Shown piece by piece: positions 2,291 to 62,444 of a DNA stretch of 64,000 nt. The stretch comes from Polyangia bacterium (GTDB lineage: Bacteria > Myxococcota_A > Polyangia > JAAYKL01): contig JBNKCR010000129.1 in assembly GCA_050287845.1 (NCBI GenBank), positions 7,364 through 71,363 on the forward strand. The letters are read 5' to 3'. How positions within the stretch are numbered: the first letter of the stretch is position 1; each line of letters starts with the position of its first letter. A program made the position numbers and the translations under genes. The notes beneath the pieces are model-generated. The model saw only the letters and a list, made by a program, of their open reading frames with translations, was not told the origin of the DNA and searched no databases.

Positions 2291-3616
2291 TTAGTCGGTA
2301 TTTCTTTTTCGCAGGTTGGCAAGGTGTTCGGCGATGCGTTGTTCGAATCCGGAAGGTCCTGGGTTGTAGTATCTGGTTCCAGAGAGTGTATCGGGCAGAT
2401 AGGTTTCGCCGGCCGCAAAACCGCCTTCGCTGGGGGGATATCGGTAGCCATCCCCGTAGCCCATTTCCTTCATCAGTTTGGTGGGCGCATTGCGCAGTCT
2501 GGGAGGAACCGGCAGCGGGCCATGTTTTTTGATGTCGCCTTTGGGGCCATAGATGGCGTCCACCTGTGCGTTGGATTTCGGGGCGCAGGCCAGATAGGTG
2601 CAGAGCTGTGCCATGGGATACGCCCCTTCAGGCATTCCCAGACGTTGAAAAGCCTGATCCGCGACCACGGCCAGTTGCAGCGCTCTGGGGTCTGCGTTGC
2701 CGATGTCTTCCGACGCGAAAATAATCATCCGCCGAAGCACGAACAGTGGATCATCTCCCGCCTCCAGCATGCGAAACATCCAGTAAAGCGCTGCATCCGG
2801 ATCTGAACCCCGCATGCTTTTGATAAACGCTGAAACCACGTTGTAGTGTTCTTCTCCCGATTTATCGTACAATAGCGCTTTGGCCTGAGCGGCTTCTTCG
2901 ACGCAGGCCACATCCACCACTCTGTCGTCGCTGTCCATGGCGTGATGGACACTCATTTCCAACGCGGTCAGTGCGTAGCGGGCGTCGCCTCTGGCATTCT
3001 GCGACAGAAACTGCAATGCATCAGTGTCGATGCGGACATCAAATTTGCCAAGACCACGTTGGGAATCCGCGATGGCCCGTTCCAGTACCATCAGAATATC
3101 ATCCGGACCAAGGGGCGTGAGAGTGAGCACTTTACATCTGGAGAGCAATGCCGCAATCACTGAGAACGAAGGATTCTCCGTGGTGGCGCCCACCAGCGTC
3201 ACCACCCCCTGTTCCACGCTTGGCAGCAGCGCATCCTGCTGAGCCTTATTGAACCGATGAATTTCGTCGATAAACAGAATGGTGCGTTTGCGGTAGTGGC
3301 TGCGCGCCATCCTTGCTTTCTGGATAATTTCCCGGACGTCTTTGATGGAACCACCAACGGCGGAATACGAGATAAATTCCGCACCAGTGTGGGCGGCCAA
3401 TACTCTGGCGAGAGTGGTTTTCCCCACACCGGGAGGTCCCCAGAATATCAATGACGGAATTCTATCGGCGCGAATGGCTTTTTCGAGAAACCGACCCTCG
3501 GCCAGCAGATGTTGCTGGCCTGCAATTTCCGATAATTCTCTCGGCCGCATGCGATCCGGAAGTGGCGACAATCGAATGTCGTTGTTTGCGGCGTGGACGA
3601 ACAGATCCTCAGTCAT
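2291..3616 (-). CDS. rarA: replication-associated recombination protein A (AAA+ ATPase RarA/MgsA)
   Basis: 441 aa; Walker A GPPGVGKTT, Walker B ILFIDEIHRF, and the conserved C-terminal RarA region (YPPSEGGF...YLPD). Collinear with E. coli RarA over the whole length by eye. Confidence 0.9.
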   Translation of the reverse strand: MTEDLFVHAANNDIRLSPLPDRMRPRELSEIAGQQHLLAEGRFLEKAIRADRIPSLIFWGPPGVGKTTLARVLAAHTGAEFISYSAVGGSIKDVREIIQKARMARSHYRKRTILFIDEIHRFNKAQQDALLPSVEQGVVTLVGATTENPSFSVIAALLSRCKVLTLTPLGPDDILMVLERAIADSQRGLGKFDVRIDTDALQFLSQNARGDARYALTALEMSVHHAMDSDDRVVDVACVEEAAQAKALLYDKSGEEHYNVVSAFIKSMRGSDPDAALYWMFRMLEAGDDPLFVLRRMIIFASEDIGNADPRALQLAVVADQAFQRLGMPEGAYPMAQLCTYLACAPKSNAQVDAIYGPKGDIKKHGPLPVPPRLRNAPTKLMKEMGYGDGYRYPPSEGGFAAGETYLPDTLSGTRYYNPGPSGFEQRIAEHLANLRKRNTD

Positions 3617-3637: not shown

Positions 3638-3913
3638 TTATTTGTCGCTCTTGGTTTTGATGCTGCTCAATTCGTCTTCTACCCGTGCGAGCGTCCGTTT
3701 GACTTCGTCCAGATCTGCCTGGGTGGCGACCTCCATGAATGATGTCAGTTGCTCTTTGCGGGTCCGAATGGCCTCAGAAACCTTGACGGGTACGGATATG
3801 GCTTTTTCAATGATCGTTCCCACCTGCTCGCTTTCCATGGCTTTGGTAATTACCGGCGAGTTCAACAGCTGCATCCCTTTGCTGATGGCGAGTTCTTTTA
3901 AATTGTCTAACAT
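3638..3913 (-). CDS. small coiled-coil protein (phasin-like or UbiK-like), function unknown
   Basis: 91-aa ORF 21 nt downstream of rarA on the same strand; heptad-like charged pattern (LARVEDELSSIKTKSDK). Confidence 0.45.
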   Translation of the reverse strand: MLDNLKELAISKGMQLLNSPVITKAMESEQVGTIIEKAISVPVKVSEAIRTRKEQLTSFMEVATQADLDEVKRTLARVEDELSSIKTKSDK

Positions 3914-23317: not shown

Positions 23318-25612
23318 GTGAGTGACGATTCGAAAATTAATGAAGTGATAGCAGAGGAGCAGGCGCTCCTCTCAAAAGTAGTAGTTCATCTGACAACCTC
23401 CTCCAGAAAATCCAGTGTTTACGCCGATTATGATGCGGAATTAATCGAACTTCGGGATGCCCTGGCCGAAGCATTGCCTGAAGATGTACCGTCTCTTGTC
23501 GAGCAGATGACGCGTCTGCAGGCCATTGCGGCACAGCGGGGTCAGGGAGAAGATGTACCGGTGGATCCGGCAAGTCCGTATTTCGGCCACATGCAATTAG
23601 AAGAGGATGGCGAAATTCGGGATGTTCTCCTTGGCAAGCGTACCTACATTTCACCGGGGGATGGCATCCGTATCGTGGATTGGCGAAACGCGCCCGTGAG
23701 CCGTATGTATTACTGCTACGACGAGGGCGATGATTATGAAGAGAGTTTTGGCGGCAAGGTGCGCAGCGGCACTATTTCCACTCGCCGATCGATTACCATC
23801 ACCCGGGGCCAGTTGAGGCGCGTGGATTGTCCCCTGGGGACGTTGGTGAAAAAGGGGGAAGAGTGGATTCGGCTGCGAGAGGCCGGTGCAAAACTTTCAG
23901 GGGGACAGGGCAGTGCCATTCGGGGAACGCGGACGGGGAAATTGGGAGTGGATGCCTATGGCGACTTCAGACAGGACAAGCATTTGCCTGAGATTTCGGC
24001 CCTGCTCGACAAGGATCAGTTTGCACTGATTTCAAGTGATGAGGATGAGCTGCTTGCGGTTCAGGGAAGTGCGGGTTCCGGAAAAACCACAGTGGGACTT
24101 CATCGCATTGCGTATCTGGCATACAGCAGAACAGCTAAAGTGAAGCCATCGAATACTGTCATCATCGTATTGAACAGCGCGCTGGCATCGTACATTGCGG
24201 ATGTGTTGCCGTCTCTTGGGGTTCGCGGGGTCAAGGTCTGGACGTTTGAAAACTGGTGCTCGCGTCTGAGAAAACGGCACATCCCCGGTCTGCCGTCTTT
24301 ATACAGCGAATGGACGCCATCCATTGTGTCCCGTGTGAAAAAGCACCCGGCGTTGCTTCGCATTCTGGATGACTGGGTGGACATGCAGGACGAGACTCTG
24401 ACTGAGAAGATGCTGAAAACGGTCAGCGGTTACAATGATGCTGCCAGGGTGGAAAAAGCATGGAAAACCATTCAACGTCTGCCCATTGAGATTCGGAGGA
24501 GACGGATGCTCAAGTGGCTCGATGGCGAAGCGCGGATTGGGAGAGATACCGGTGATGGTCTTGATATGAAAACCGCGATTGCCCTCGATTCAGCGCTGCA
24601 GCGGATGGGGGAGGTGACAGATGATGTGGTGAATGACTGGGCTGATCTGTTTACGGATAAACGCCAGTTGAAGCATATGTTCGAAACCCACGCCCCGGCG
24701 GAATTTACGGAGTCGGAGCTGGATCGTGTTCATCAATGGTGCACAGATGCATATAAAAAAATATTTGATCAGATGGACGATGATGGCGAAGAGACGATTG
24801 AGGAAGATGACCGCGCAACTATTGACAGGGAAGACGACGCCATTTTGCTCCGACTTTATCAGCTGAAAAAGGGTTGGCTGCGGGAAGGGGGAAAACGTAT
24901 CGAATATGACCACATGATGGTTGATGAAGTGCAGGACTTCAGTGCGCTTGAAGTGCGGGTGTTGATTGGCGCTGTAGGGCAGAACCGTCCGATAACCCTT
25001 GCCGGAGATACAGCGCAGAAAATTGTTCGGGAAGGCGGATTTGATAATTGGGAAGGTTTCATTGACGACCTCGATGTTCAGAATGCCAGACTGGAGCCGC
25101 TTAAGATTGCATATCGGTCCACCATTGAGGTGATGGAAGTGGCGAGAGCCGTGCTCGGACCCCTTGCGGGAGATGAATCGGTGGCCACCCGTCATGGCGC
25201 CCCGGTGGAGGTTCACCAATTTTCAGATCCGGGGCAGGCGGTAGATTTTCTGGGTACCTCGCTTCGGGAACTGTTTCTCAGGGAGCCTCTGGCCAATGTG
25301 GCGATTATTGCCCGGCACGTGAACCAGGCAAAACTGTACTATCAGGGATTGAAGAAGGCGGAAATTCCCAGATTGCGTCTGGTTGTGGAACAGGATTTCT
25401 CTTTTACCCCCGGTATCGAAGTCACTGAAATCCGGCAGGTAAAAGGGCTGGAATTCGATTATGTGGTGATGGTGGAGTGTAATGAGGATTCCTACCCGGT
25501 CACCGACGAAGCCCGGCATCTGTTGCACGTGGGAATGACCCGTGCGGCTCACCAGTTATGGCTGATAACTACCGCGAATCCGTCTCAGCTCATCCCGAAG
25601 AATCTTCTTTGA
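23318..25612 (+). CDS. HelD-like UvrD-family helicase (RNA-polymerase-associated helicase IV type)
   Basis: 764 aa; GTG start; N-terminal region with IVDWRNAPVSRMYY motif; Walker A GSAGSGKTTVGLHRIAYL; C-terminal helicase motifs (LLHVGMTRA). Confidence 0.75.
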   Translation: MSDDSKINEVIAEEQALLSKVVVHLTTSSRKSSVYADYDAELIELRDALAEALPEDVPSLVEQMTRLQAIAAQRGQGEDVPVDPASPYFGHMQLEEDGEIRDVLLGKRTYISPGDGIRIVDWRNAPVSRMYYCYDEGDDYEESFGGKVRSGTISTRRSITITRGQLRRVDCPLGTLVKKGEEWIRLREAGAKLSGGQGSAIRGTRTGKLGVDAYGDFRQDKHLPEISALLDKDQFALISSDEDELLAVQGSAGSGKTTVGLHRIAYLAYSRTAKVKPSNTVIIVLNSALASYIADVLPSLGVRGVKVWTFENWCSRLRKRHIPGLPSLYSEWTPSIVSRVKKHPALLRILDDWVDMQDETLTEKMLKTVSGYNDAARVEKAWKTIQRLPIEIRRRRMLKWLDGEARIGRDTGDGLDMKTAIALDSALQRMGEVTDDVVNDWADLFTDKRQLKHMFETHAPAEFTESELDRVHQWCTDAYKKIFDQMDDDGEETIEEDDRATIDREDDAILLRLYQLKKGWLREGGKRIEYDHMMVDEVQDFSALEVRVLIGAVGQNRPITLAGDTAQKIVREGGFDNWEGFIDDLDVQNARLEPLKIAYRSTIEVMEVARAVLGPLAGDESVATRHGAPVEVHQFSDPGQAVDFLGTSLRELFLREPLANVAIIARHVNQAKLYYQGLKKAEIPRLRLVVEQDFSFTPGIEVTEIRQVKGLEFDYVVMVECNEDSYPVTDEARHLLHVGMTRAAHQLWLITTANPSQLIPKNLL

Positions 25613-25805
25613 AACAATTTGTTGATTTTTTTTGAAACAGTTTGTTACACCGGTGGGCAGATGAGTTATATCCGTAACTGAAATGAATCACTGTGACGCT
25701 GGGGGTACGGTGTGATGGCAGCGGCTTCCTGATTTGGCGATGTATATGCACGCGAGATAACCGAATCGTCGCATGTATTGTGCACAGGGAAGGATAATAA
25801 CCGCC

Positions 25806-27194
25806 ATGCATATTCCTGAAGAACTTTTTGAACTGGTGTTTCAGAGCATCAGCGAAGGGGTTTTCACTGTCGATGAAAATTTTCGAATTACCGCATTCAA
25901 CAGCGCTGCGGAGAAAATTACCGGAATTCCGGCGGAAATGGCCGTGGGACGAAAATGTCACGAAGTGTTTCGGGCCAATATCTGTCAGAACCGCTGTGCC
26001 CTGAAACATACCCTTCAAACGGGAAATCCCCGGTCGGATGTGCGGGTGGATGTACTGGATGCCAATATGGACCCCATTCCCATTGAAGTGTCCACTGCCG
26101 TTCTTCGCGATACGGACGGACGGATGATAGGCGGCGTGGAAATCTTTCGGGATATCAGTGAAATTGAACTGCTGCGGGGCGAGCTGGGGCAGCGGCACGA
26201 GTTTTCCCGCATCATTGGTGCCAGCCCTGCCATTCAGTCTGTCCTGTCGGTGGTGCCACAGGTGGCGCAGTCTGATGCGGCCGTGCTCATCCAGGGGCAG
26301 AGCGGCACCGGGAAGGAACTGGTTGCCGGTGCCATCCACGAACTGTCACGCCGCCGTGACAAGGCGCTTGTCAGAGTCAATTGTGCGGCATTGCCGGATA
26401 CGCTTCTGGAATCAGAACTTTTCGGATATATGAAAGGCGCATTTACCGGGGCGGTGGCGGACAAACCGGGCCGGTTTGCGCAGGCCGATGGGGGGACGCT
26501 GTTTCTGGACGAAATTGGAGACATATCACCGGCGTTTCAGGTAAAGCTGCTCCGCGTGCTCGAAGAAGGGGAGTTTCAACCTCTGGGCAGCACGCGAACC
26601 ATCACCGTTGATGTGCGATTGATTTGCGCCACAAATCTGGATTTGGCGCAGATGGTCCGCGATGGTACTTTCCGGGAAGATCTGTATTACCGGATTCGGG
26701 TGGTACCGTTGCATATGCCTTCCCTGGCAGAGCGCCGACAGGACATCCCCATGCTCATCGACCATTTCGTGAAACTGATTTCGGCCAGAATGGGTAGACG
26801 GCCGCCAGGGTTCAGTCCCCGTACCATGCGACTTTTATATGAATATCATTATCCTGGAAATGTACGTGAACTGCGAAACATTCTGGAGCGCGTTCTGGTG
26901 CTCTGCAACCAGGACGTGGTGGAACCACCGTGTTTGCCCCCGGAAATATACATGCCCCGTCATTTCGAATCCGCTTCGGTTGTCCCTGGGGAAGAGGCGG
27001 AACCGGGTAGATTGGCCGCCAATAACGATTCCCTTCGGAGAAGTGTTTCGCCGCCTTACCTGGCCGGAGATGAAGCGGCGACCTTGAAGCAGGCGCTGGC
27101 AGCTGCTTCCTGGAATCGGAATCTGGCGGCAAAACGCCTTGGAATCAGTCGTACTACACTCTGGCGCCGTATGAGAAAATACGGCCTCGAATAA
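25806..27194 (+). CDS. sigma-54-dependent transcriptional activator with N-terminal PAS domain
   Basis: PAS-like N-terminus; AAA+ sigma-54 interaction domain with Walker [15 protein letters not shown] motif, arginine finger region; C-terminal Fis-type HTH ([24 protein letters not shown]). ORF opens at 25773. Confidence 0.85.
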
Positions 27195-37005: not shown

Positions 37006-37902
37006 ATGGACCATGGTGATTTACGAAATTTTATTGCCCTTGCTGAAACACTGCATTTTGCAAAAGCGGCAGCGCGGGTGCACATCAGTCCCTCCGCGCT
37101 CACCCGGGGAATTCAGCGGCTGGAATCCGAGGTGGGCCATACCCTCTTTGCCCGGGGAAACCGACATGTGAAGCTTACCCCGGCGGGGCGGACTTTTCTT
37201 ACTTACGCCGAAGGGGTGCTGGCGGACTGGGAGACCTGTCGTGCCACCCTGCAGAAAAAGGGCGACGTGGTGGAGGGCTCCCTCTCCATCTACAGTTCGA
37301 TTACCGCAGTGTACACCATTCTTTCCGCAGTGCTGCGTCCCTTTCGCAATCGATATCCGGCGGTACAGGTGAATCTGTCCACTGGCGCGGCGGCGGATGC
37401 CATTGGCAGGGTGCGAGACGGTCTGGCGGATTGTGCGGTGGCGGCTATGCCGGAGACGCTGCCTGCCTCGGTTTCTTTTTTGAACCTCACCACCACGGCC
37501 CTGGTGTGTATCGCCCCGGTGGGATTCAGGCGGATTCCCCGATTCAATCCGGCGGGGGGAGTGGATTGGCAGCGTACCCCCATCATTATGCCGGACAGAG
37601 ATGCGGCGCGAACCATGCAGCAGAAATGGTTTCTGGCCCAGGGCATTGCGCCGTTGATTTTTGCGGAAGTGGCCGGAAATGAAGCCATCATTGCCATGGT
37701 CAGCCTTGGATTCGGTGTGGGGATTGTTCCGGAAATCGTGCTGAATCAGAGTCCATTGCGGGAAAAGGTGCAGATCCTCAATATTTTGTCACCATTGCCC
37801 CCGTATGCCATCGGTGTTGTCTACGCAACCCGCCGGGAGACGGACCCCAGAATTGCCGCCTTCTGCGACGTTGCCCGGGAAACTGCCCTGGGAACCGGTT
37901 GA
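37006..37902 (+). CDS. ilvY: LysR-family transcriptional regulator IlvY
   Basis: 298 aa; N-terminal wHTH (LHFAKAAARVHISPSALTRGIQRLE); divergent from ilvC as in enterobacteria; collinear with E. coli IlvY by eye. Confidence 0.8.
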   Translation: MDHGDLRNFIALAETLHFAKAAARVHISPSALTRGIQRLESEVGHTLFARGNRHVKLTPAGRTFLTYAEGVLADWETCRATLQKKGDVVEGSLSIYSSITAVYTILSAVLRPFRNRYPAVQVNLSTGAAADAIGRVRDGLADCAVAAMPETLPASVSFLNLTTTALVCIAPVGFRRIPRFNPAGGVDWQRTPIIMPDRDAARTMQQKWFLAQGIAPLIFAEVAGNEAIIAMVSLGFGVGIVPEIVLNQSPLREKVQILNILSPLPPYAIGVVYATRRETDPRIAAFCDVARETALGTG

Positions 37903-37919: not shown

Positions 37920-38456
37920 TTATTCAACTTTTATAAAGCGGTCCGGGGAAACATTGCAGACGGGACAATCTTCGGTGGGTTCTCCCACGTGCACATATCC
38001 ACAGACGGAACATACGTAATAATCGCTTTCCCGTTCATCGAGCATGTGGTCAATGGCGCTCCGGTACAGTTTGCCATGCACCTCTTCGGCATCCCGCGCC
38101 TGAGAAAAGCTGATTTCCGCAGCGCGGTTCCCCTCCTCAATGGCAGTTTTGATGAACCTGGGATAAATGCCTTCGCTGATTCGGGTTTCGCTTTCAAAAC
38201 TCTCCTGGAGATTCTCCTGGGTGGATTTAATGACGCGCAGGATGCGCAGATGTTTCAGGGCGTGAATCTCCTCCGCGGCACTGATGGCGCGGAACAGACG
38301 AGCCATCTGGGGATATCCCTCCCTATCCGCCTTTTCGGCAAACCCTTTAAGACGCAACGCTGCCGTTGCTTCCCCGACAAACGCTTCGTAAAGATTGTCC
38401 TCGGTTTTCTGTTTTTCCGGTTTGAGTTTCAAAGCTTCCATTTCCTGCTCCATCAT
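37920..38456 (-). CDS. rbr: rubrerythrin
   Basis: 178 aa; ferritin-like diiron four-helix region with E-x-x-H pairs, then C-terminal rubredoxin-like CSVCGYVH...CPVC. Confidence 0.85.
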   Translation of the reverse strand: MMEQEMEALKLKPEKQKTEDNLYEAFVGEATAALRLKGFAEKADREGYPQMARLFRAISAAEEIHALKHLRILRVIKSTQENLQESFESETRISEGIYPRFIKTAIEEGNRAAEISFSQARDAEEVHGKLYRSAIDHMLDERESDYYVCSVCGYVHVGEPTEDCPVCNVSPDRFIKVE

Positions 38457-38527
38457 TTGCCATCGGTATATTGGTGATACCCGGCGATTTTATCCATGTC
38501 TGTTGCCATTGAAATATGAGTTTATTG

Positions 38528-38564
38528 CGCTGCTAACTGGTATAGTAATACCAGTTAGCAGAAT
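38528..38564. promoter_or_regulatory. perfect 13-bp inverted repeat (TGCTAACTGGTAT-N4-ATACCAGTTAGCA), candidate operator upstream of rubrerythrin
   Basis: Read directly from the sequence; about 75-105 bp upstream of the rbr start and followed by a TATAAT-like hexamer; position approximate. Confidence 0.4.
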
Positions 38565-38989
38565 TACTATAATCACAGATTCCGGATTCTCACCTGAATT
38601 TGCGATAAAATGTGTACTTTTTTCAGTGGCACACTGCGGCACAGTCGCCGAATCGGTGTTCAAACCGAATTCATCTTTAAATTCAGGCACATAACATAAA
38701 TGGAGCTAAGCAATCGGCAGTGGAATAGCACTTGCATCCGGAGTGGGCGTATAAAAAAGCCATCTCGCGGACCAGACGCTTTATTGGCCGAAACGGCCAT
38801 CCCGGGTTCGCCCGTACCGCAGGAGGGGTAAAAATTGCCATGGTACGGGCGAACCCATATTTCAGACACCCCGGTTCAGATTCCCGCAGATAATCCGCCC
38901 ATACTGTTGACGTTGCTCACCGGATTTCTTAGGTATCGCATCCGGACAGATATGCGCGGTGCGAAGAAAACCGGTGGGGATGAAGGCCT

Positions 38990-41077
38990 ATGACACAGAA
39001 CAGAACGCAGACTGAAGAAAAGCACTATCTCGATACCATACAGGGCAAGCTGAAAACGGCCTATGCATCGCTGGACCATCGGGTGAACCGGTACGCAAAG
39101 GAAATCCAGGAGCAGAAAACATATCTGTGGGAGCAGCGCAGCGACATGGATCATGCGGAAAAGGTCTCTTCGAGGCAGGCAGCGCTGCAGATGGTTCGGA
39201 GCGGAGAAATGGCGCAGAAAAGCCAGTCCCGGATAGCCCGGCTGATTCAGTCGCCCTGGTTCGGTCGAATCGATTTCAGACGCACGCCATCCGCCGATTC
39301 GTCGCGAATGATATATGTGGGAGTTCACTCCTTCTCCGACGATGACACTGGCAATATTTTCATCCACGACTGGCGCGCCCCCGTGTCCACCATGTTTTAC
39401 GACTTTGAACTCGGTCCGGCCCGATACGATTCTCCGGACGGCCTGATTGACGGAGAGCTCACCCTGAAACGTCAGTTTCGAATTCGCAACGGCGAAATGG
39501 AGTTCATGCTCGAAAGCGGGCTGAACATCATGGATGACGTTCTCCAGGAGGAACTCAGTCGCACATCGGATGAGCGGATGAAAAACATTGTGGCCACCAT
39601 TCAGCGGGATCAGAATGCCATCATTCGAAACGAAGACGCCGACGTGCTGATTATTCAGGGGGTTGCCGGGTCGGGGAAAACATCCATTGCCCTTCACCGG
39701 ATAGCGTTTCTTCTTTATCGTCACCGGGAGACATTATCATCGAAAGATATCCTCATTATTTCACCCAATCGGGTGTTCGGGGATTTTATCGCCAACGTGC
39801 TGCCGGAATTGGGCGAAGAACAGATCGCGGAGCTGGGTATGGACGACCTCGCCGACGAGCTGCTGGAGCGCAAAATAAAGTTTCAGACTTTTTTTGAAGA
39901 AACCCTGGCCCTGATGGAAAAAGGCGATGATGCGCTGCGGCAACGCATTGCGGCGAAATCAACGGTGGACTTCATCCGAAAGCTCGACGCGTATATCGCC
40001 CATGTGGAATCCACCCGTTTCGCGGCCACGGATGTATGGATTGGCAACTATGCGGTGCCCGCCTGGGTTGTCGAGCAGGCTTTCAGCAAGCGGCCGGATC
40101 TTCCGCTGACAAAGCGAATCGGATGGGCGGCAGAAGTGGTGGTGCACGAAGTCTGGGTGAAGTACCGGTATGAAGTCCCGGCGAAGGAGCGGGCGCAGCT
40201 CAAACGGGATATTGGCAAAATGGTTAAAAAATCGACGTTGCGGGCCCTGTACAGGGAATTCTTCGCCTGGCAGGGGAGGCCGGAGCTGTTCAAAGCGGGG
40301 CCTCGGGGGAAGTTGGAACACGCGGACGTGTATCCGTTGATATATCTGAAAATAAAAGTGGAAGGCATTTCTTTGCCCTATCCGCAAATCAGACATCTGC
40401 TGGTGGATGAAATGCAGGATTATACACCGGTGCAGTATGCGGTACTCGGCAAACTGTTTTCGTGTGCCAAAACGATTCTCGGCGATTCGTCCCAATCTGT
40501 GAATCCCTACAGCTCGTCGAAATCAGAAACCATCGGCGAGGTGTTTGCGTCTGCTGAATGTGTGCAGCTCCAGAAGAGTTATCGGTCCAGCTATGAAATT
40601 ACCCGGTTCGCCGGCGCCATGTTTCCGGACTTGAATATCGAAGCGATTGAGCGCCACGGTGAATCGCCGAATGTGCGGCCGTGCAAATCCCGGAAAGAGG
40701 AGATGGACACCATACAGACAGAGCTCCGTCACTTTAAACAGGGGAGCGCACGAACTATTGGCGTCATCTGTAAAAGCCAGAAACAGGCGCAGAAACTGTA
40801 TAGCGAAATTGTAACGAATTTTCCCGAGGCGCAATTGCTCACGGAAAAAAGCAATGCATTCAAAAAAGGTATCATCGTTGCGGCGGTGCACATGTCAAAG
40901 GGACTCGAATTCGACGAGGTGCTGCTGCCCAATGCATCTGCCGAAAATTATGGCAATCGGATGGATCGTCATCTGCTGTACGTGGCCACGACGCGGGCCA
41001 TGCACCGACTGACCCTGACGTACTCCGGATTGCCATCTCCCTTTATTCCCGAACCACCGCTGAACGAATCAGAGTAG
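38990..41077 (+). CDS. HelD-like UvrD-family helicase, second paralog
   Basis: 695 aa; IHDWRAPVSTMFY motif; Walker A GVAGSGKTSIALHRIAFL; C-terminal LLYVATTRA. Confidence 0.75.
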   Translation: MTQNRTQTEEKHYLDTIQGKLKTAYASLDHRVNRYAKEIQEQKTYLWEQRSDMDHAEKVSSRQAALQMVRSGEMAQKSQSRIARLIQSPWFGRIDFRRTPSADSSRMIYVGVHSFSDDDTGNIFIHDWRAPVSTMFYDFELGPARYDSPDGLIDGELTLKRQFRIRNGEMEFMLESGLNIMDDVLQEELSRTSDERMKNIVATIQRDQNAIIRNEDADVLIIQGVAGSGKTSIALHRIAFLLYRHRETLSSKDILIISPNRVFGDFIANVLPELGEEQIAELGMDDLADELLERKIKFQTFFEETLALMEKGDDALRQRIAAKSTVDFIRKLDAYIAHVESTRFAATDVWIGNYAVPAWVVEQAFSKRPDLPLTKRIGWAAEVVVHEVWVKYRYEVPAKERAQLKRDIGKMVKKSTLRALYREFFAWQGRPELFKAGPRGKLEHADVYPLIYLKIKVEGISLPYPQIRHLLVDEMQDYTPVQYAVLGKLFSCAKTILGDSSQSVNPYSSSKSETIGEVFASAECVQLQKSYRSSYEITRFAGAMFPDLNIEAIERHGESPNVRPCKSRKEEMDTIQTELRHFKQGSARTIGVICKSQKQAQKLYSEIVTNFPEAQLLTEKSNAFKKGIIVAAVHMSKGLEFDEVLLPNASAENYGNRMDRHLLYVATTRAMHRLTLTYSGLPSPFIPEPPLNESE

Positions 41078-45378: not shown

Positions 45379-46224
45379 TCATGCGGCCTCCTTAATTGAG
45401 ACTTTTGCCGGATTGAGGGACACCGTTTCTACCGGGATCCAGTTTCGTGTTTTTCCAGTCCAACGGTTTGGTTCTTTTTGTTTTGCACTCTCATAAACCA
45501 AATGTCGTTGACGCAAAATTTCTTTATCATCACCATTATGGCGCGCCTCGGGGGTAACGAAGCGGATGCCGCTGTGTAAGTGTTTTGTATTGTACCAAAT
45601 CACAAATTTCTCCATCCAGCGCCTTGCTGAATCGATGGATTCAAACGGCTTGTGAGGGTATTCTGGTCTGTACTTTAATGTTCTGAAGATTGACTCGGAA
45701 TAGGGGTTATTATCGCTTACTCCCGGGCGACTGAAAGATGCCATCACGCCAGGCTGGTCAAGTGTCGCAAGCATTGTGGCGCCTTTCATCGGGCCGCCGT
45801 TGTCTGAATGCAAAGAAAGCTGATTTGCATCTACACCATTGGCGTCAATAATCTGGACAATCATGGCAGATGAAATTTCCATACACTCACGGTCGTGAAT
45901 TTCCCATCCAATAATCTTTCTGCTCCAAACGGCCAGCACAAGATACGGATAATAAAACGTTCCTCTGACCGCTGCAGGCAAGTACGAAATATCCCAACTC
46001 CACACCTGATTGGGGCCCGTTGCCAAAAGTTCATCGGGTCGATTGTGCGTTGCGGGTTTTGAGGATTCTCGATGTTGCTGTTGTCCCTCCTCACGAAGAA
46101 TCCGATACATGGGAGACTCGGATGCCACGTACACGCCGCTATCAGCCAACCTGGGTACAATTTGATAGTTCCCTTGAAGGGTTGACCGATACGCCCAAAG
46201 AAGCGCTGACAATGGGCATCGCAT
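45379..46224 (-). mobile_element. IS3-family transposase remnant (OrfB integrase-core part only; OrfA and the 5-prime part missing)
   Basis: Integrase-core (rve) signature PNQVWSWDISYLP...YYPYLVLAVWSRKIIGWEI and the DDE region; no HTH OrfA frame upstream; transposase-like similarity starts only about 30 codons into the ORF. Confidence 0.7.
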
Positions 46225-49337: not shown

Positions 49338-49853
49338 TCAGGCGCCATCGAGACCATGACGCTCTGATGCGTCAAACCAGGCTTCGGGGTCCTGCAGATA
49401 CGCAAGGGAATCTTCGATGGAAAGCTGGTGATCATGTTCGATTTTTTTCAGAAAACCGAAGAATTCCTGTTCTCTGGGGTTCTTGCATTTTTTCACCAGA
49501 TCCGCATAGAAGTCTGCGGCGTCTTTTTCAAACTGAGCTGCCGCTTTCAATGCTTCAATATCACTGTCGTCGTGGGCTTTTGTTTCTTCAGCCTTGTAGT
49601 CGAGTTTTTCGAGCTCTTCTTTTACATTGCTGTCCTGCATTTCCAGGTTCACATCTTCTGGCCATGCGCCATCCGCCAGGAGCGTACTGTGGAGTTTGTT
49701 AATCCACCGTTTGTGGTCTTCCTCTTCCTCCGCCAGCGTTTCAAGCAGACGTTTCACCACGGGATTGGTCGAACGGGCCGCCTCTTTCAGATAGTAATCT
49801 TTTTCGCGTTGCTCATTGTCCATTGCAAATTTTATTGAAGAAATTTTATCCAT
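49338..49853 (-). CDS. ferritin-like / rubrerythrin-like diiron domain protein
   Basis: 171 aa; paired E...E-x-x-H helices (TLAEEEEDHKRW, KKIEHDHQL); no rubredoxin module. Confidence 0.6.
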   Translation of the reverse strand: MDKISSIKFAMDNEQREKDYYLKEAARSTNPVVKRLLETLAEEEEDHKRWINKLHSTLLADGAWPEDVNLEMQDSNVKEELEKLDYKAEETKAHDDSDIEALKAAAQFEKDAADFYADLVKKCKNPREQEFFGFLKKIEHDHQLSIEDSLAYLQDPEAWFDASERHGLDGA

Positions 49854-49896
49854 AACTTTGCTCCTTTACAAAAATCGATGTCCACAAAAGTGAAAA

Positions 49897-50385
49897 CTAG
49901 TTTTCCACCAGCACAACCTCATCGTATTCGACTTCAAATCGCAGTTTGTGCTTTGCTTCTTCCTGGGCCAGCGCAAGAAACAGCGCTTTAATCTCGGGGG
50001 TATCCACTCGACTCGCCAAATCCATGTACAGGCGGAATGCCTGTTTCTCCTGTTGCATGGCAAACAGCAGAATATCCTGGTACGACGGGGATTCACCCAG
50101 CTTCACAGGAACTGTATAATCCGAGAGCTTCATATCGGATGTCGCCGAAGCGCTCTCCAGTACATCTTCGCCTTCCAGAACGTCCTCAAGCTTTTTCCGG
50201 TGTTCCATTTCTTCTTCAGCGTACTCCAGAAAGATTTTTCTGATTTCATTGTTCTTCGCCCTGGCGGCCAGATCGGTATAGAGTACCGCTGAGCGCTGTT
50301 CAAGAGATATGGCATACTCCAGGATGTCCTTTGTGCTCAGGTGTCCGGTCATCGTTATATTCTCACCATTACGTAAGACAGGCAC
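49897..50385 (-). CDS. ferritin-like / rubrerythrin-like diiron domain protein
   Basis: 162 aa; YAEEEMEHRKKL and LAQEEAKHKLRF motifs; start may be the internal MTGHLSTKDI (50352). Confidence 0.6.
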   Translation of the reverse strand: MPVLRNGENITMTGHLSTKDILEYAISLEQRSAVLYTDLAARAKNNEIRKIFLEYAEEEMEHRKKLEDVLEGEDVLESASATSDMKLSDYTVPVKLGESPSYQDILLFAMQQEKQAFRLYMDLASRVDTPEIKALFLALAQEEAKHKLRFEVEYDEVVLVEN

Positions 50386-50441
50386 GGGTGTTGCGCAAAA
50401 CGCTTACGGATTCGGGCAACACTTTCGCGCCTGCGGATTCA

Positions 50442-50984
50442 TCAGAAATATCGTTTCAACAGTCCGGCAAATGCCTGACCGTGCCTTGCTTCGTCTTTGC
50501 ACATTTCATGTACGGTATCGTGAATGGCATCGTAATTCAGCTGTTTGGCTTTGGTTGCGATGTCCTTTTTCCCCTGGCAGGCGCCGTGCTCCGCAGCGAC
50601 GCGCATTTCCAGGTTTTTCTTTGTGTCTGCCACAAGCACTTCACCCAGAAGCTCAGCAAACTTGGCCGCATGTTCCGCTTCTTCGAATGCAATGCGTTTG
50701 TATGCTTCGGCAACTTCCGGATACCCTTCGCGTTCCGCCTGTCGGCTCATGGCGAGGTACATGCCCACCTCCGTGCATTCGCCCATGAAATTCTGACGCA
50801 ATCCTTCCAGTATTTCGGCGTCAACATCTTTGGCCACGCCAATGCGATGCTCATCCGCCCAGGTCATTCCGGTACCGGACTGCTCCTGAAATTTTTCTTT
50901 GGGGGCGCCGCATTGGGGGCATTTGTCCGGCGCACTGTCGCCTTCGTATACGTAACCACAAATGGTGCAAATGTATTTTTTCAT
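50442..50984 (-). CDS. reverse rubrerythrin (N-terminal rubredoxin-like, C-terminal ferritin-like)
   Basis: Start at [15 protein letters not shown] (ORF opens at 51005); CxxC...CxxC at the N-terminus (CTICGY...CPQCGAP), then a diiron four-helix region ([20 protein letters not shown]). Confidence 0.8.
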
Positions 50985-51065
50985 TTGATACTCCTCTTTT
51001 TTCAATCGGTTAATTGTTGTTGATGTGATTGCATCATTAATGTCTCCGCGCGTATTGTCAATCGC

Positions 51066-51311
51066 TCATGTGTGCCACTTGCCTGCAATCCGATGCTTCT
51101 CACACTCTTTTTCTGTGAGTTTGATCAGTCTGTAGGCGGTATCGCGCAAAATACTGTAAATCACGCCACAGGAATCATCATCCCTGTCCCGGTCGCCCTC
51201 ATCCGCCAATGCCAGCATTTCCTGGCTGAGTCGCATGGTTCTGAGCAGATTGTCGTTGTACGGTTTGTACGGTTTTGTCATCTCGCCATCCATTCTGCGA
51301 TGTATCACCAT
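51066..51311 (-). CDS. hypothetical small protein
   Basis: 81-aa ORF directly upstream, same strand, of the reverse rubrerythrin gene; no motif recognised. Confidence 0.35.
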   Translation of the reverse strand: MVIHRRMDGEMTKPYKPYNDNLLRTMRLSQEMLALADEGDRDRDDDSCGVIYSILRDTAYRLIKLTEKECEKHRIAGKWHT

Positions 51312-51635
51312 TTTTCCGCCGGCATCGCGATGGCAGGCTATTTAGCGAATGCCATGCCAGTTTAAAAAAACGTTTAATATCAACCTGTTGATTGAATTGT
51401 TGTTCAAAAATGTCTCATTGGCAGTGTCTCGGCGCGTTGCTTCCGGGGCTGTGAGACAAACGGCCGACGAGACAGATACTGCGGCGACAAATCGGTGTTG
51501 GTGCGGTCAAATCCTGCCTGAAAGAGATTGTGTCGAGGTTCGCAGTAGCGGCGGGAACTTCCATGATTACAGTGGTGAAACAGCAGATCACAATCATATA
51601 TAACCGTGCAGTTTGCACAGTGATACAGGAGAACA

Positions 51636-62094: not shown

Positions 62095-62365
62095 ACTTCG
62101 TTGCTCGTCGGTCGCATACCCCGGTATGTTCCGCTCCTCGCGCCTTGCCGGTCCGGCGCAGCAAATGCCATGTTGGAAATTTTATTTCGACCACTGTCCT
62201 TAGGTCTTGCTCATAAATAACTCTGCCATTCATGCAACAAACTTGACATCCCTGCTGCGTTGCTCCTCCTCGCCATACCGCCAGTATGACTCGTTGTCGC
62301 GCCTTGCCGGATATGTCATCCTGTTACCTGAATCAACAGATTTATTTATGAGCAAACCCTTAGAC
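62095..62365. repeat. intergenic composite repeat: about 55-bp imperfect direct repeat plus about 20-bp inverted repeat (ttgctcataaataa core)
   Basis: Copy A about 62099-62155 and copy B about 62258-62312 share cgttgctc...cgcgccttgccgg; inverted copies of (c)ttgctcataaataa at about 62204-62220 and 62341-62361. Confidence 0.4.
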
Positions 62366-62444
62366 AAAATTAAATCTGAAGTTTAATTTTGTCTGATTTT
62401 GTTTTGGGGAACAGGAGATCTCCCCTGCTGGATGCATAAACCAT

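Follow-up and report, generated by a model that had tools for sequence, protein, structure and literature searches.

A short conserved dyad within a recently perfected palindrome in a rubrerythrin promoter region, a candidate regulatory site

Here, we describe a perfect inverted repeat with arms of 14 nt in the promoter region of a rubrerythrin gene (rbr). It occurs only once in the window, by which we mean the whole 64-kb stretch of DNA that was analysed. What related rbr promoters have in common with it is the inner part, five plus five bases around four spacer nucleotides, and the changes that separate the full palindrome from its closest relatives are clustered in one of the two arms. As judged from these sequence comparisons, the inner core GGYAT-N4-WTRCY is a real phylogenetic footprint, and the outer symmetry is best explained as a recent, lineage-specific extension that would have arisen by template-switch homogenisation of the arms. 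Since only the inner 5+5 bases are conserved and the rest is a recent extension at the strain level, the dyad should be seen at most as an ordinary candidate for a regulator-binding site or cis-element. We tentatively favor the reading in which the core is an operator and the palindrome an expansion of it. The inverted repeat had been noticed in a first-pass annotation of the same DNA; the observation itself is confirmed and is non-random, and its interpretation is partly supported by the data presented here.

The rubrerythrin gene, which is the presumed target of the dyad element, is located on the minus strand (37920..38441) and encodes a protein of 173 aa with the Pfam domains Rubrerythrin and RUBY_RBDX. 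Its start is the third ATG at 38441 (MEALK..., preceded by GGAG), and the gene callers of public assemblies use the same start. Neither of the two ATGs that precede it is conserved, since L046, the outgroup of our comparison (rbr 91% identical), has AAC AAC in their place. Because 38441 is the conserved start, the dyad has to be placed 89-120 nt upstream of rbr; the earlier value of 75-105 nt was counted from a non-conserved ATG at 38456 and is corrected here. The dyad resides in a divergent intergenic region of 548 bp, with rbr (minus) on one side and the gene of a UvrD-like helicase, HelD by NCBIfam (38990-41077, plus), on the other. Downstream of rbr and convergent with it is the gene of the LysR-type protein IlvY (37006-37902; NF008722), divergently paired with ilvC. 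In protein searches the window Rbr groups with metagenomic sequences, the nearest named ones being 'Deltaproteobacteria bacterium' MAGs, and a metagenome scan with Rbr found two loci only, both of them distant. Also encoded in the window are a second UvrD/HelD-like helicase paralogue (23318-25612, plus) and an rve-type integrase of an IS element (45379-46224, minus). In the related locus L004 an insertion of ~160 bp (about 3210-3372; alignment columns 141-302) is found beside the helD start when compared with the window, L051/52 and L053.

On the plus strand, the arms of the dyad are CTGCTAACTGGTAT (38530-38543) and ATACCAGTTAGCAG (38548-38561). They are 100% complementary and flank the 4-nt spacer AGTA. 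Read in the sense of rbr, on the minus strand, the promoter-proximal arm (38548..38561) is CTGCTAACTGGTAT, the spacer (38544..38547) is TACT and the rbr-distal arm (38530..38543) is ATACCAGTTAGCAG; the core dyad GGTAT-TACT-ATACC occupies 38539..38552. Enumeration of the perfect inverted repeats with loops of up to 12 nt identified this dyad as the longest in the window. Arms of 14 bp were reached in one of 60 first-order Markov simulations of the window, 57 of which had arms of 11 bp or less, and the analytical expectation of ~0.003 such dyads per window places it beyond chance. Thus, the first-pass annotation was right in reporting a perfect repeat upstream of rubrerythrin and in calling it unlikely by chance, with the amendment that the arms measure 14 nt rather than 13. 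The sole comparable close-spaced dyad of the window is an AT-rich, perfect 13-bp repeat at 62362-62394 (AGACAAAATTAAA-TCTGAAG-TTTAATTTTGTCT), situated between an 89-aa ORF and the gene of a HAD hydrolase.

A scan of the intergenic region returned a single promoter-like site, the predicted sigma-70-like promoter GTGAGA-16-TATAGT on the minus strand (38566..38593), which lies immediately upstream of the dyad in the rbr sense. The TATAAT-like hexamer that had been described as following the dyad does exist on the plus strand (38568-38573); in the direction of rbr, however, it precedes the dyad and reads TATAGT. The plus-strand TATAAT is changed to TATAAC in L046, whereas all five alignable orthologues retain the minus-strand TATAGT unchanged. 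A promoter block of ~100 nt (38553..38645, minus) is near-invariant in the ingroup and shares 80-90% identity with L046, while the aligned intergenic region is 64% identical to L046 overall and 65% outside the dyad. The proximal arm of the dyad belongs to this conserved block, and the distal arm opens the least conserved stretch. Within the block we also observed a direct repeat, TGTGCC-GCAG-TGTGCC in the rbr sense (38628-38644), with a periodicity of 10 nt. This repeat is near-invariant in the alignable orthologues, and L006, which otherwise cannot be aligned, has the counterpart TGTGCC-GGAG-TGCGC. The spacing between the repeat and the core dyad varies by lineage (73 nt vs 47 nt), and the repeat may be a second protein-binding site.

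Conservation of the core was analyzed in five distinct upstream regions that can be aligned, those of the window (= L001), L004, L051/L052, L053 and L046, and in six more distant ones (L005, L006, L007, L047/48, L049 and L050). Nucleotide divergence of rbr is 4-5% within the ingroup and 13-14% to L046. Nine of these 11 regions carry the family pattern GGYAT-N4-WTRCY in the sense direction, 94-113 nt before the ATG, and the upstream regions of L007 and L050 are without it. In the ingroup the core sites are found at -109 to -113 from the ATG. The strict form of the pattern, GGTAT-N4-AT[AG]C[CT], was set on the alignable regions and occurs also at -98 in L006 and at -94 in L005, hence in two of the six independent regions, which was equalled by 2 of 20,000 shuffles. 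A relaxed form, GG[TC]AT-N4-[AT]T[AG]C[CT], that was defined post hoc, after the data had been seen, adds L047/48 (-95) and L049 (-98) and thereby comes to four of six, a count that no shuffle reached. All four of these lineages, L005, L006, L047/48 and L049, are otherwise unalignable with the window. Throughout 110 kb, comprising the window and the related loci, the strict pattern marks rbr sites only. Both half-sites of the core fit RGYAW, which would suit a site bound by a homodimer, the right one being degenerate across lineages, and the spacer always has 4 nt, with TGCT, TACA and TAAT as variants in the orthologues. Operators in general are recognized as dyad-symmetric sites conserved at a fixed position in orthologous promoters, and the 5+5 core, but only this core, has that property. 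The position of the core relative to predicted promoters is inconsistent: in the window it lies downstream of the -10 hexamer, in L006 it is located 9 nt upstream of the -35 hexamer of a very strong predicted promoter (TTGCCA-18-TATAAT with a TG, 11/12).

The outer part of the dyad has a different history. Out of 14 possible Watson-Crick pairs, the window forms 14, L004 11, L053 9, and L051/52 as well as the outgroup L046 only 6, to which 2-3 G-T oppositions can be added in the latter two. In line with these counts, the predicted RNA fold energy changes from -22 kcal/mol in the window to -15.3 in L004, -10.2 in L053, -6.5 in L051/52 and -3.6 in L046, and the fold z-score is -6.5 in the window and -0.16 in L046. 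The rate at which the dyad region as a whole diverges is no lower than that of the intergenic DNA around it. The falling pair counts, together with divergence at the background rate, mean that the long perfect palindrome is not a conserved feature. Phylogenetic footprinting, which had been suggested as a check of the dyad, therefore speaks for the core in 9 of 11 regions and against the outer arms, whose long perfect symmetry is absent from L046. It had also been stated that a dyad occurring only once and without conservation in orthologous promoters would argue against an operator. Both largely apply, as the dyad occurs once in the window and its long form is unconserved, but the core is nonetheless footprinted.

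The direction of change can be read from the alignment. When the window is compared with L051, the distal arm differs at 8 of 14 positions and the proximal arm at 0 of 14, as against 55 of 387 elsewhere (a background of 14%; Fisher p=3.4e-4), and the window states of the distal arm are all the complement of the proximal arm. The proximal arm itself is identical in the window, L004 and L051/52, with one change in L053 and three changes in L046. Because L051 and the outgroup L046 share non-complementary states, the palindrome is derived, and the ancestral sequence was, on the evidence of this alignment, already a quasi-palindrome. The best-supported split in the 1.1-kb alignment unites the window, L004 and L053 against L051 and L046 (14 sites), and three shared-derived sites fall into the 14-nt distal arm where 0.14 are expected (p=4e-4); the underlying tree of five sequences is star-like with conflicting splits and poorly resolved. 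Two pair-creating changes, at positions 12 and 14 of the distal arm, are private to the window, and the spacer is not inverted. With a graded series (14/11/9/6) and two changes unique to the window, a single template switch explains the data no better than several events or selection for pairing would.

Several publications describe how template switching corrects and expands imperfect inverted repeats, both in bacteria and close to promoters (PMC5941160, PMC7202029, PMC8794818, PMC13100816). Similar to these cases, the outgroups of the locus described here carry an imperfect repeat, substitutions are clustered in one arm, the derived bases all complement the other arm, and the repeat has grown outward, starting at a short core that lies close to a promoter. 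Unlike in those cases, the history seen here is graded (6, 9, 11 and 14 pairs) and not a single event, and there is no spacer inversion. The comparison draws on five sequences, whose tree is poorly resolved, and the likeness is one of pattern.

Taken as an operator, GGYAT-N4-WTRCY in the rbr promoter region would most likely be the candidate binding site of a rubrerythrin-specific dimeric transcription factor. In the lineage of the window strain this short inverted repeat was extended outward to the perfect 14-bp palindrome, the rbr-distal flank having been rewritten to complement the conserved flank on the promoter side. Rewriting of this kind is what arm homogenisation leaves behind when replication switches templates at a quasi-palindrome, and it may have taken several steps or been aided by selection. 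If TATAGT (38571-38566) is a real promoter element, the site would span about +8 to +21, and a dimer bound at this position might repress rbr by blocking RNA polymerase. The dimeric-operator reading of the first-pass annotation is thus retained for the short 5+5 core that is conserved at rbr promoters and given up for the long perfect dyad, which is not. A more specific scenario can be formulated, in which an uncultured deltaproteobacterial (Desulfobacterota-like) lineage has a rubrerythrin-specific regulator not yet described, with the core as its operator, and in which template switching seeded on the short dyad strengthened it in the window strain and so changed repression of an oxidative-stress gene between close strains. 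We regard this full chain of events as improbable.

None of the known regulator families accounts for the dyad. A regulator of the PerR/Fur/Rex class had been put forward, with the remark that the repeat does not match the consensus boxes of these proteins. Comparison with the consensus boxes bears out the remark. Pfam scans of ~50 ORFs, essentially all of those in the window, detected no Fur-family, Rex or GntR-type gene. The DNA-binding regulators that were found in the 64 kb are IlvY and a PAS/sigma-54 activator (25773-27194, plus) at a distance of 12 kb, and no others. IlvY, which pairs with ilvC, is not a candidate, because the locus of L006 keeps the core and lacks IlvY.

The PerR/Fur box is an AT-rich 7-1-7 element (TTATAATNATTATAA or GATAATGATNATCATTATC), whereas the dyad, CTGGTAT-AGTA-ATACCAG, has a 7-4-7 arrangement and does not match. 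The PerR box of B. subtilis is TTATAATNATTATAA, and the box predicted for Desulfovibrio PerR is AAYAGGAATnRTTCCTRTT, a 9-1-9 element (PMC545781 Table 7); PerR signals vary strongly among deltaproteobacterial lineages and regulation is mostly local (PMC545781). As with PerR/Fur operators at rubrerythrin genes, a palindromic site is found here in the rbr promoter region. The half-site AACTGGTAT agrees with the Desulfovibrio PerR half-site AAYAGGAAT in 7 of 9 positions, and those of L046 (AACAGGTAT) and L047 (AATAGGCAT) agree in 8 of 9 each; a signal of the Desulfovibrio type was rejected on account of the spacer, which has 4 nt here vs 1 nt there. Unlike in local PerR regulation, no perR-like gene is present beside rbr or elsewhere in the 64 kb, and the other rubrerythrin genes of the window are without the site. 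Of the Rex box TTGTGAANNNNTTCACAA, only a lone half-like GTGTGAA/GTGAGAA is seen in the conserved block, and its partner is absent. Operators of the GntR family (FadR, PdhR, DasR/NagR) follow the scheme TGGT-Nx-ACCA with 1-3 nt between the halves. The arms of the dyad likewise contain TGGTA...TACCA, but 8 nt separate TGGT from ACCA here and the window has no GntR gene.

A search for further copies of the half-site upstream of oxidative-stress genes had been suggested. None turned up in the 64 kb. Allowing up to 3 mismatches, no second copy of the half-site or of the 18-nt core AACTGGTAT-N4-ATACCAGTT exists in the window, and no dyad-like site lies upstream of the three other rubrerythrin-family genes (49338-51005). 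These three form a cluster on the minus strand (49338-49853, 49897-50385 and 50442-51005, coding for 171, 162 and 187 aa), in which the 187-aa member carries its rubredoxin-like domain at the N-terminus, the arrangement of a reverse rubrerythrin. The cluster is preceded by a small acidic ORF of ~83 aa (51072-51320, minus) without a Pfam match. As a motif common to the dyad and this second rubrerythrin cluster only the 10-mer GTGTGCCACT was found; it is at chance level and lies inside a small ORF there, and was discarded. With no second site found in the window, there is no evidence of a regulon.

An exact scan for the 18-nt core in 185,579 reference genomes gave 38 loci, all of them unrelated, and a viral scan gave 2 matches, which is chance level. 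None of the 38 loci is from a relative of the window. With regard to a repeated element, the searches yield one copy in 64 kb, and the reference scan covered genomes other than that of the source organism. The 38 loci fall into three groups: an Akkermansiaceae repeat family, an orthologous terminator-like hairpin of Methanomethylovorans, and scattered hairpins with A- and T-run flanks; further terminator-like hairpins and chance matches are among them. In two Akkermansiaceae MAGs, UBA4581 and UBA4589, the 22-nt string AACTGGTAT-N4-ATACCAGTT is the center of a multi-copy element, which accounts for ~19 of the 38 loci and has ~45 nt of conserved flank per side, unrelated to the flanks in the window. 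In several Methanomethylovorans MAGs the same 22-nt string is a conserved gene-end hairpin that is followed by a T-run. Rfam contains no family matching the intergenic region or the whole window, and a literature search with the half-site strings and 'operator' found nothing.

The strongest competitor of the operator reading does without a dedicated regulator. The palindrome could be a neutral by-product of template switching at a pre-existing quasi-palindrome, with the core and the proximal arm kept as part of the core promoter or the initially transcribed region, a possibility that we consider doubtful but serious. It would explain why divergence of the entire dyad matches the background rate, why the proximal arm is contiguous with the conserved block of ~100 nt and the distal arm begins the least conserved stretch, and why the dyad is single-copy. 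A -10-like hexamer adjoins the core in several lineages of the alignment. Perfect inverted repeats are moreover over-represented in bacteria, an excess that is put down to template switching (PMC5941160). However, a plain -10 or start-site region would not need a 5+5 symmetry around exactly 4 nt, and this symmetry is kept in lineages whose flanks cannot be aligned. The core is also no good sigma-70 -10 element, since its hexamers TATTAC and TATTAA lack the T at -7.

An RNA element was considered as well. Here, the rbr mRNA, transcribed from the TATAGT promoter, would carry at its 5' end or close to it a stem-loop that stabilises it or modulates its translation, and selection would have lengthened the stem in the window lineage. 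Hairpins at the 5' terminus, such as that of the ompA leader, protect mRNAs from 5'-end-dependent decay. Similar to these, the window has a strong hairpin about where the transcript is predicted to start: the stem is very stable (-22 kcal/mol, z -6.5), and a start ~7 nt after TATAGT, itself a prediction, would coincide with the first bases of the stem. Allowing G-U, 79.7% of cells pair on the rbr-sense strand, and in L004 and L053 folding is slightly more favorable for the sense strand than for the antisense strand. Unlike ompA-type stem-loops, however, the hairpin is weak or absent in close relatives that keep the promoter; it is strong only in the window and L004, and L046 and L051 are essentially without a stable one. 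There is no overall strand asymmetry, as G-U counts are 1/1, 3/1, 3/3 and 2/3 (sense/antisense), and the shuffle controls for covariation were not significant. In L047, C-A and T-T oppositions interrupt the 5-bp core stem. The strongest promoter predicted in L006 is situated downstream of its core, which would thus not be transcribed from it. We consider an RNA function of the dyad unlikely.

The same intergenic region contains a second perfect inverted repeat, at 38804-38856 (plus), with 15-bp arms (GGGTTCGCCCGTACC / GGTACGGGCGAACCC) and a 23-nt loop that includes a conserved GCAGGAGGGGTAA, about 134 nt upstream of the HelD start. Across the orthologues full pairing is kept only on the plus (helD-sense) strand. 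A compensatory double change from G:C to A:T is seen in L004, one G-U in L051/52 and three G-U pairs in L053, and on the rbr-sense strand the same changes are A-C mismatches. The hairpin has no match in Rfam and probably folds as an RNA stem-loop within a plus-strand transcript. The strand-specific RNA signal that is seen at 38804-38856 is not seen at the 38530-38561 dyad.

Other structures, namely an intrinsic terminator, a REP/MITE-type repeat, a sigma-54 promoter or a part of the small ORF 38490..38690 (minus), are very unlikely, and everything else together fares about as poorly or only slightly better. The 22-nt core string does recur in the Akkermansiaceae repeat and the terminator-like hairpin of Methanomethylovorans, but those copies have unrelated flanks and the dyad is single-copy here; no terminator is called at the dyad, and neither strand has a T-run 3' of the stem. 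TGGTAT-N4-WTGC resembles the -24/-12 pair of sigma-54 promoters, which have GG and GC exactly 10 nt apart (TGGCAC-N5-TTGCW); the core TGGTAT-N4-WTRC is one nucleotide short of this spacing, and the invariant GC is not conserved, being replaced by AC in the window, L004, L053, L005 and L047. Small genes have been called nearby in relatives, one of 52 aa in L046 (149-307) that overlaps the decayed dyad (287-300) and one of 60 aa in L004 (3462-3644) that ends ~100 nt upstream of the L004 dyad (3747-3768). The reverse ORF of 66 codons that overlaps the dyad in the window had been called speculative from the beginning, and conservation agrees that it is not a gene: orthologues differ by indels of 1-2 nt at 38662, the frame is interrupted by a stop in L004, the most conserved block is read in another frame in L046, where the ORF ends inside the dyad, and changes are not in excess at third codon positions.

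A word of caution is appropriate for similar loci. The perfection of the dyad is evidence of a recent mutation history and not of conservation, which will not surprise a specialist. Whatever its function, the locus shows cleanly how nature can produce a perfect palindrome within a few percent of divergence. Rubrerythrin is an oxygen and peroxide defence gene of anaerobes. Should the short core indeed be an operator, it would represent a new binding motif for rubrerythrin control in a lineage that is known from metagenomes only, and it would offer a handle for finding the regulator.
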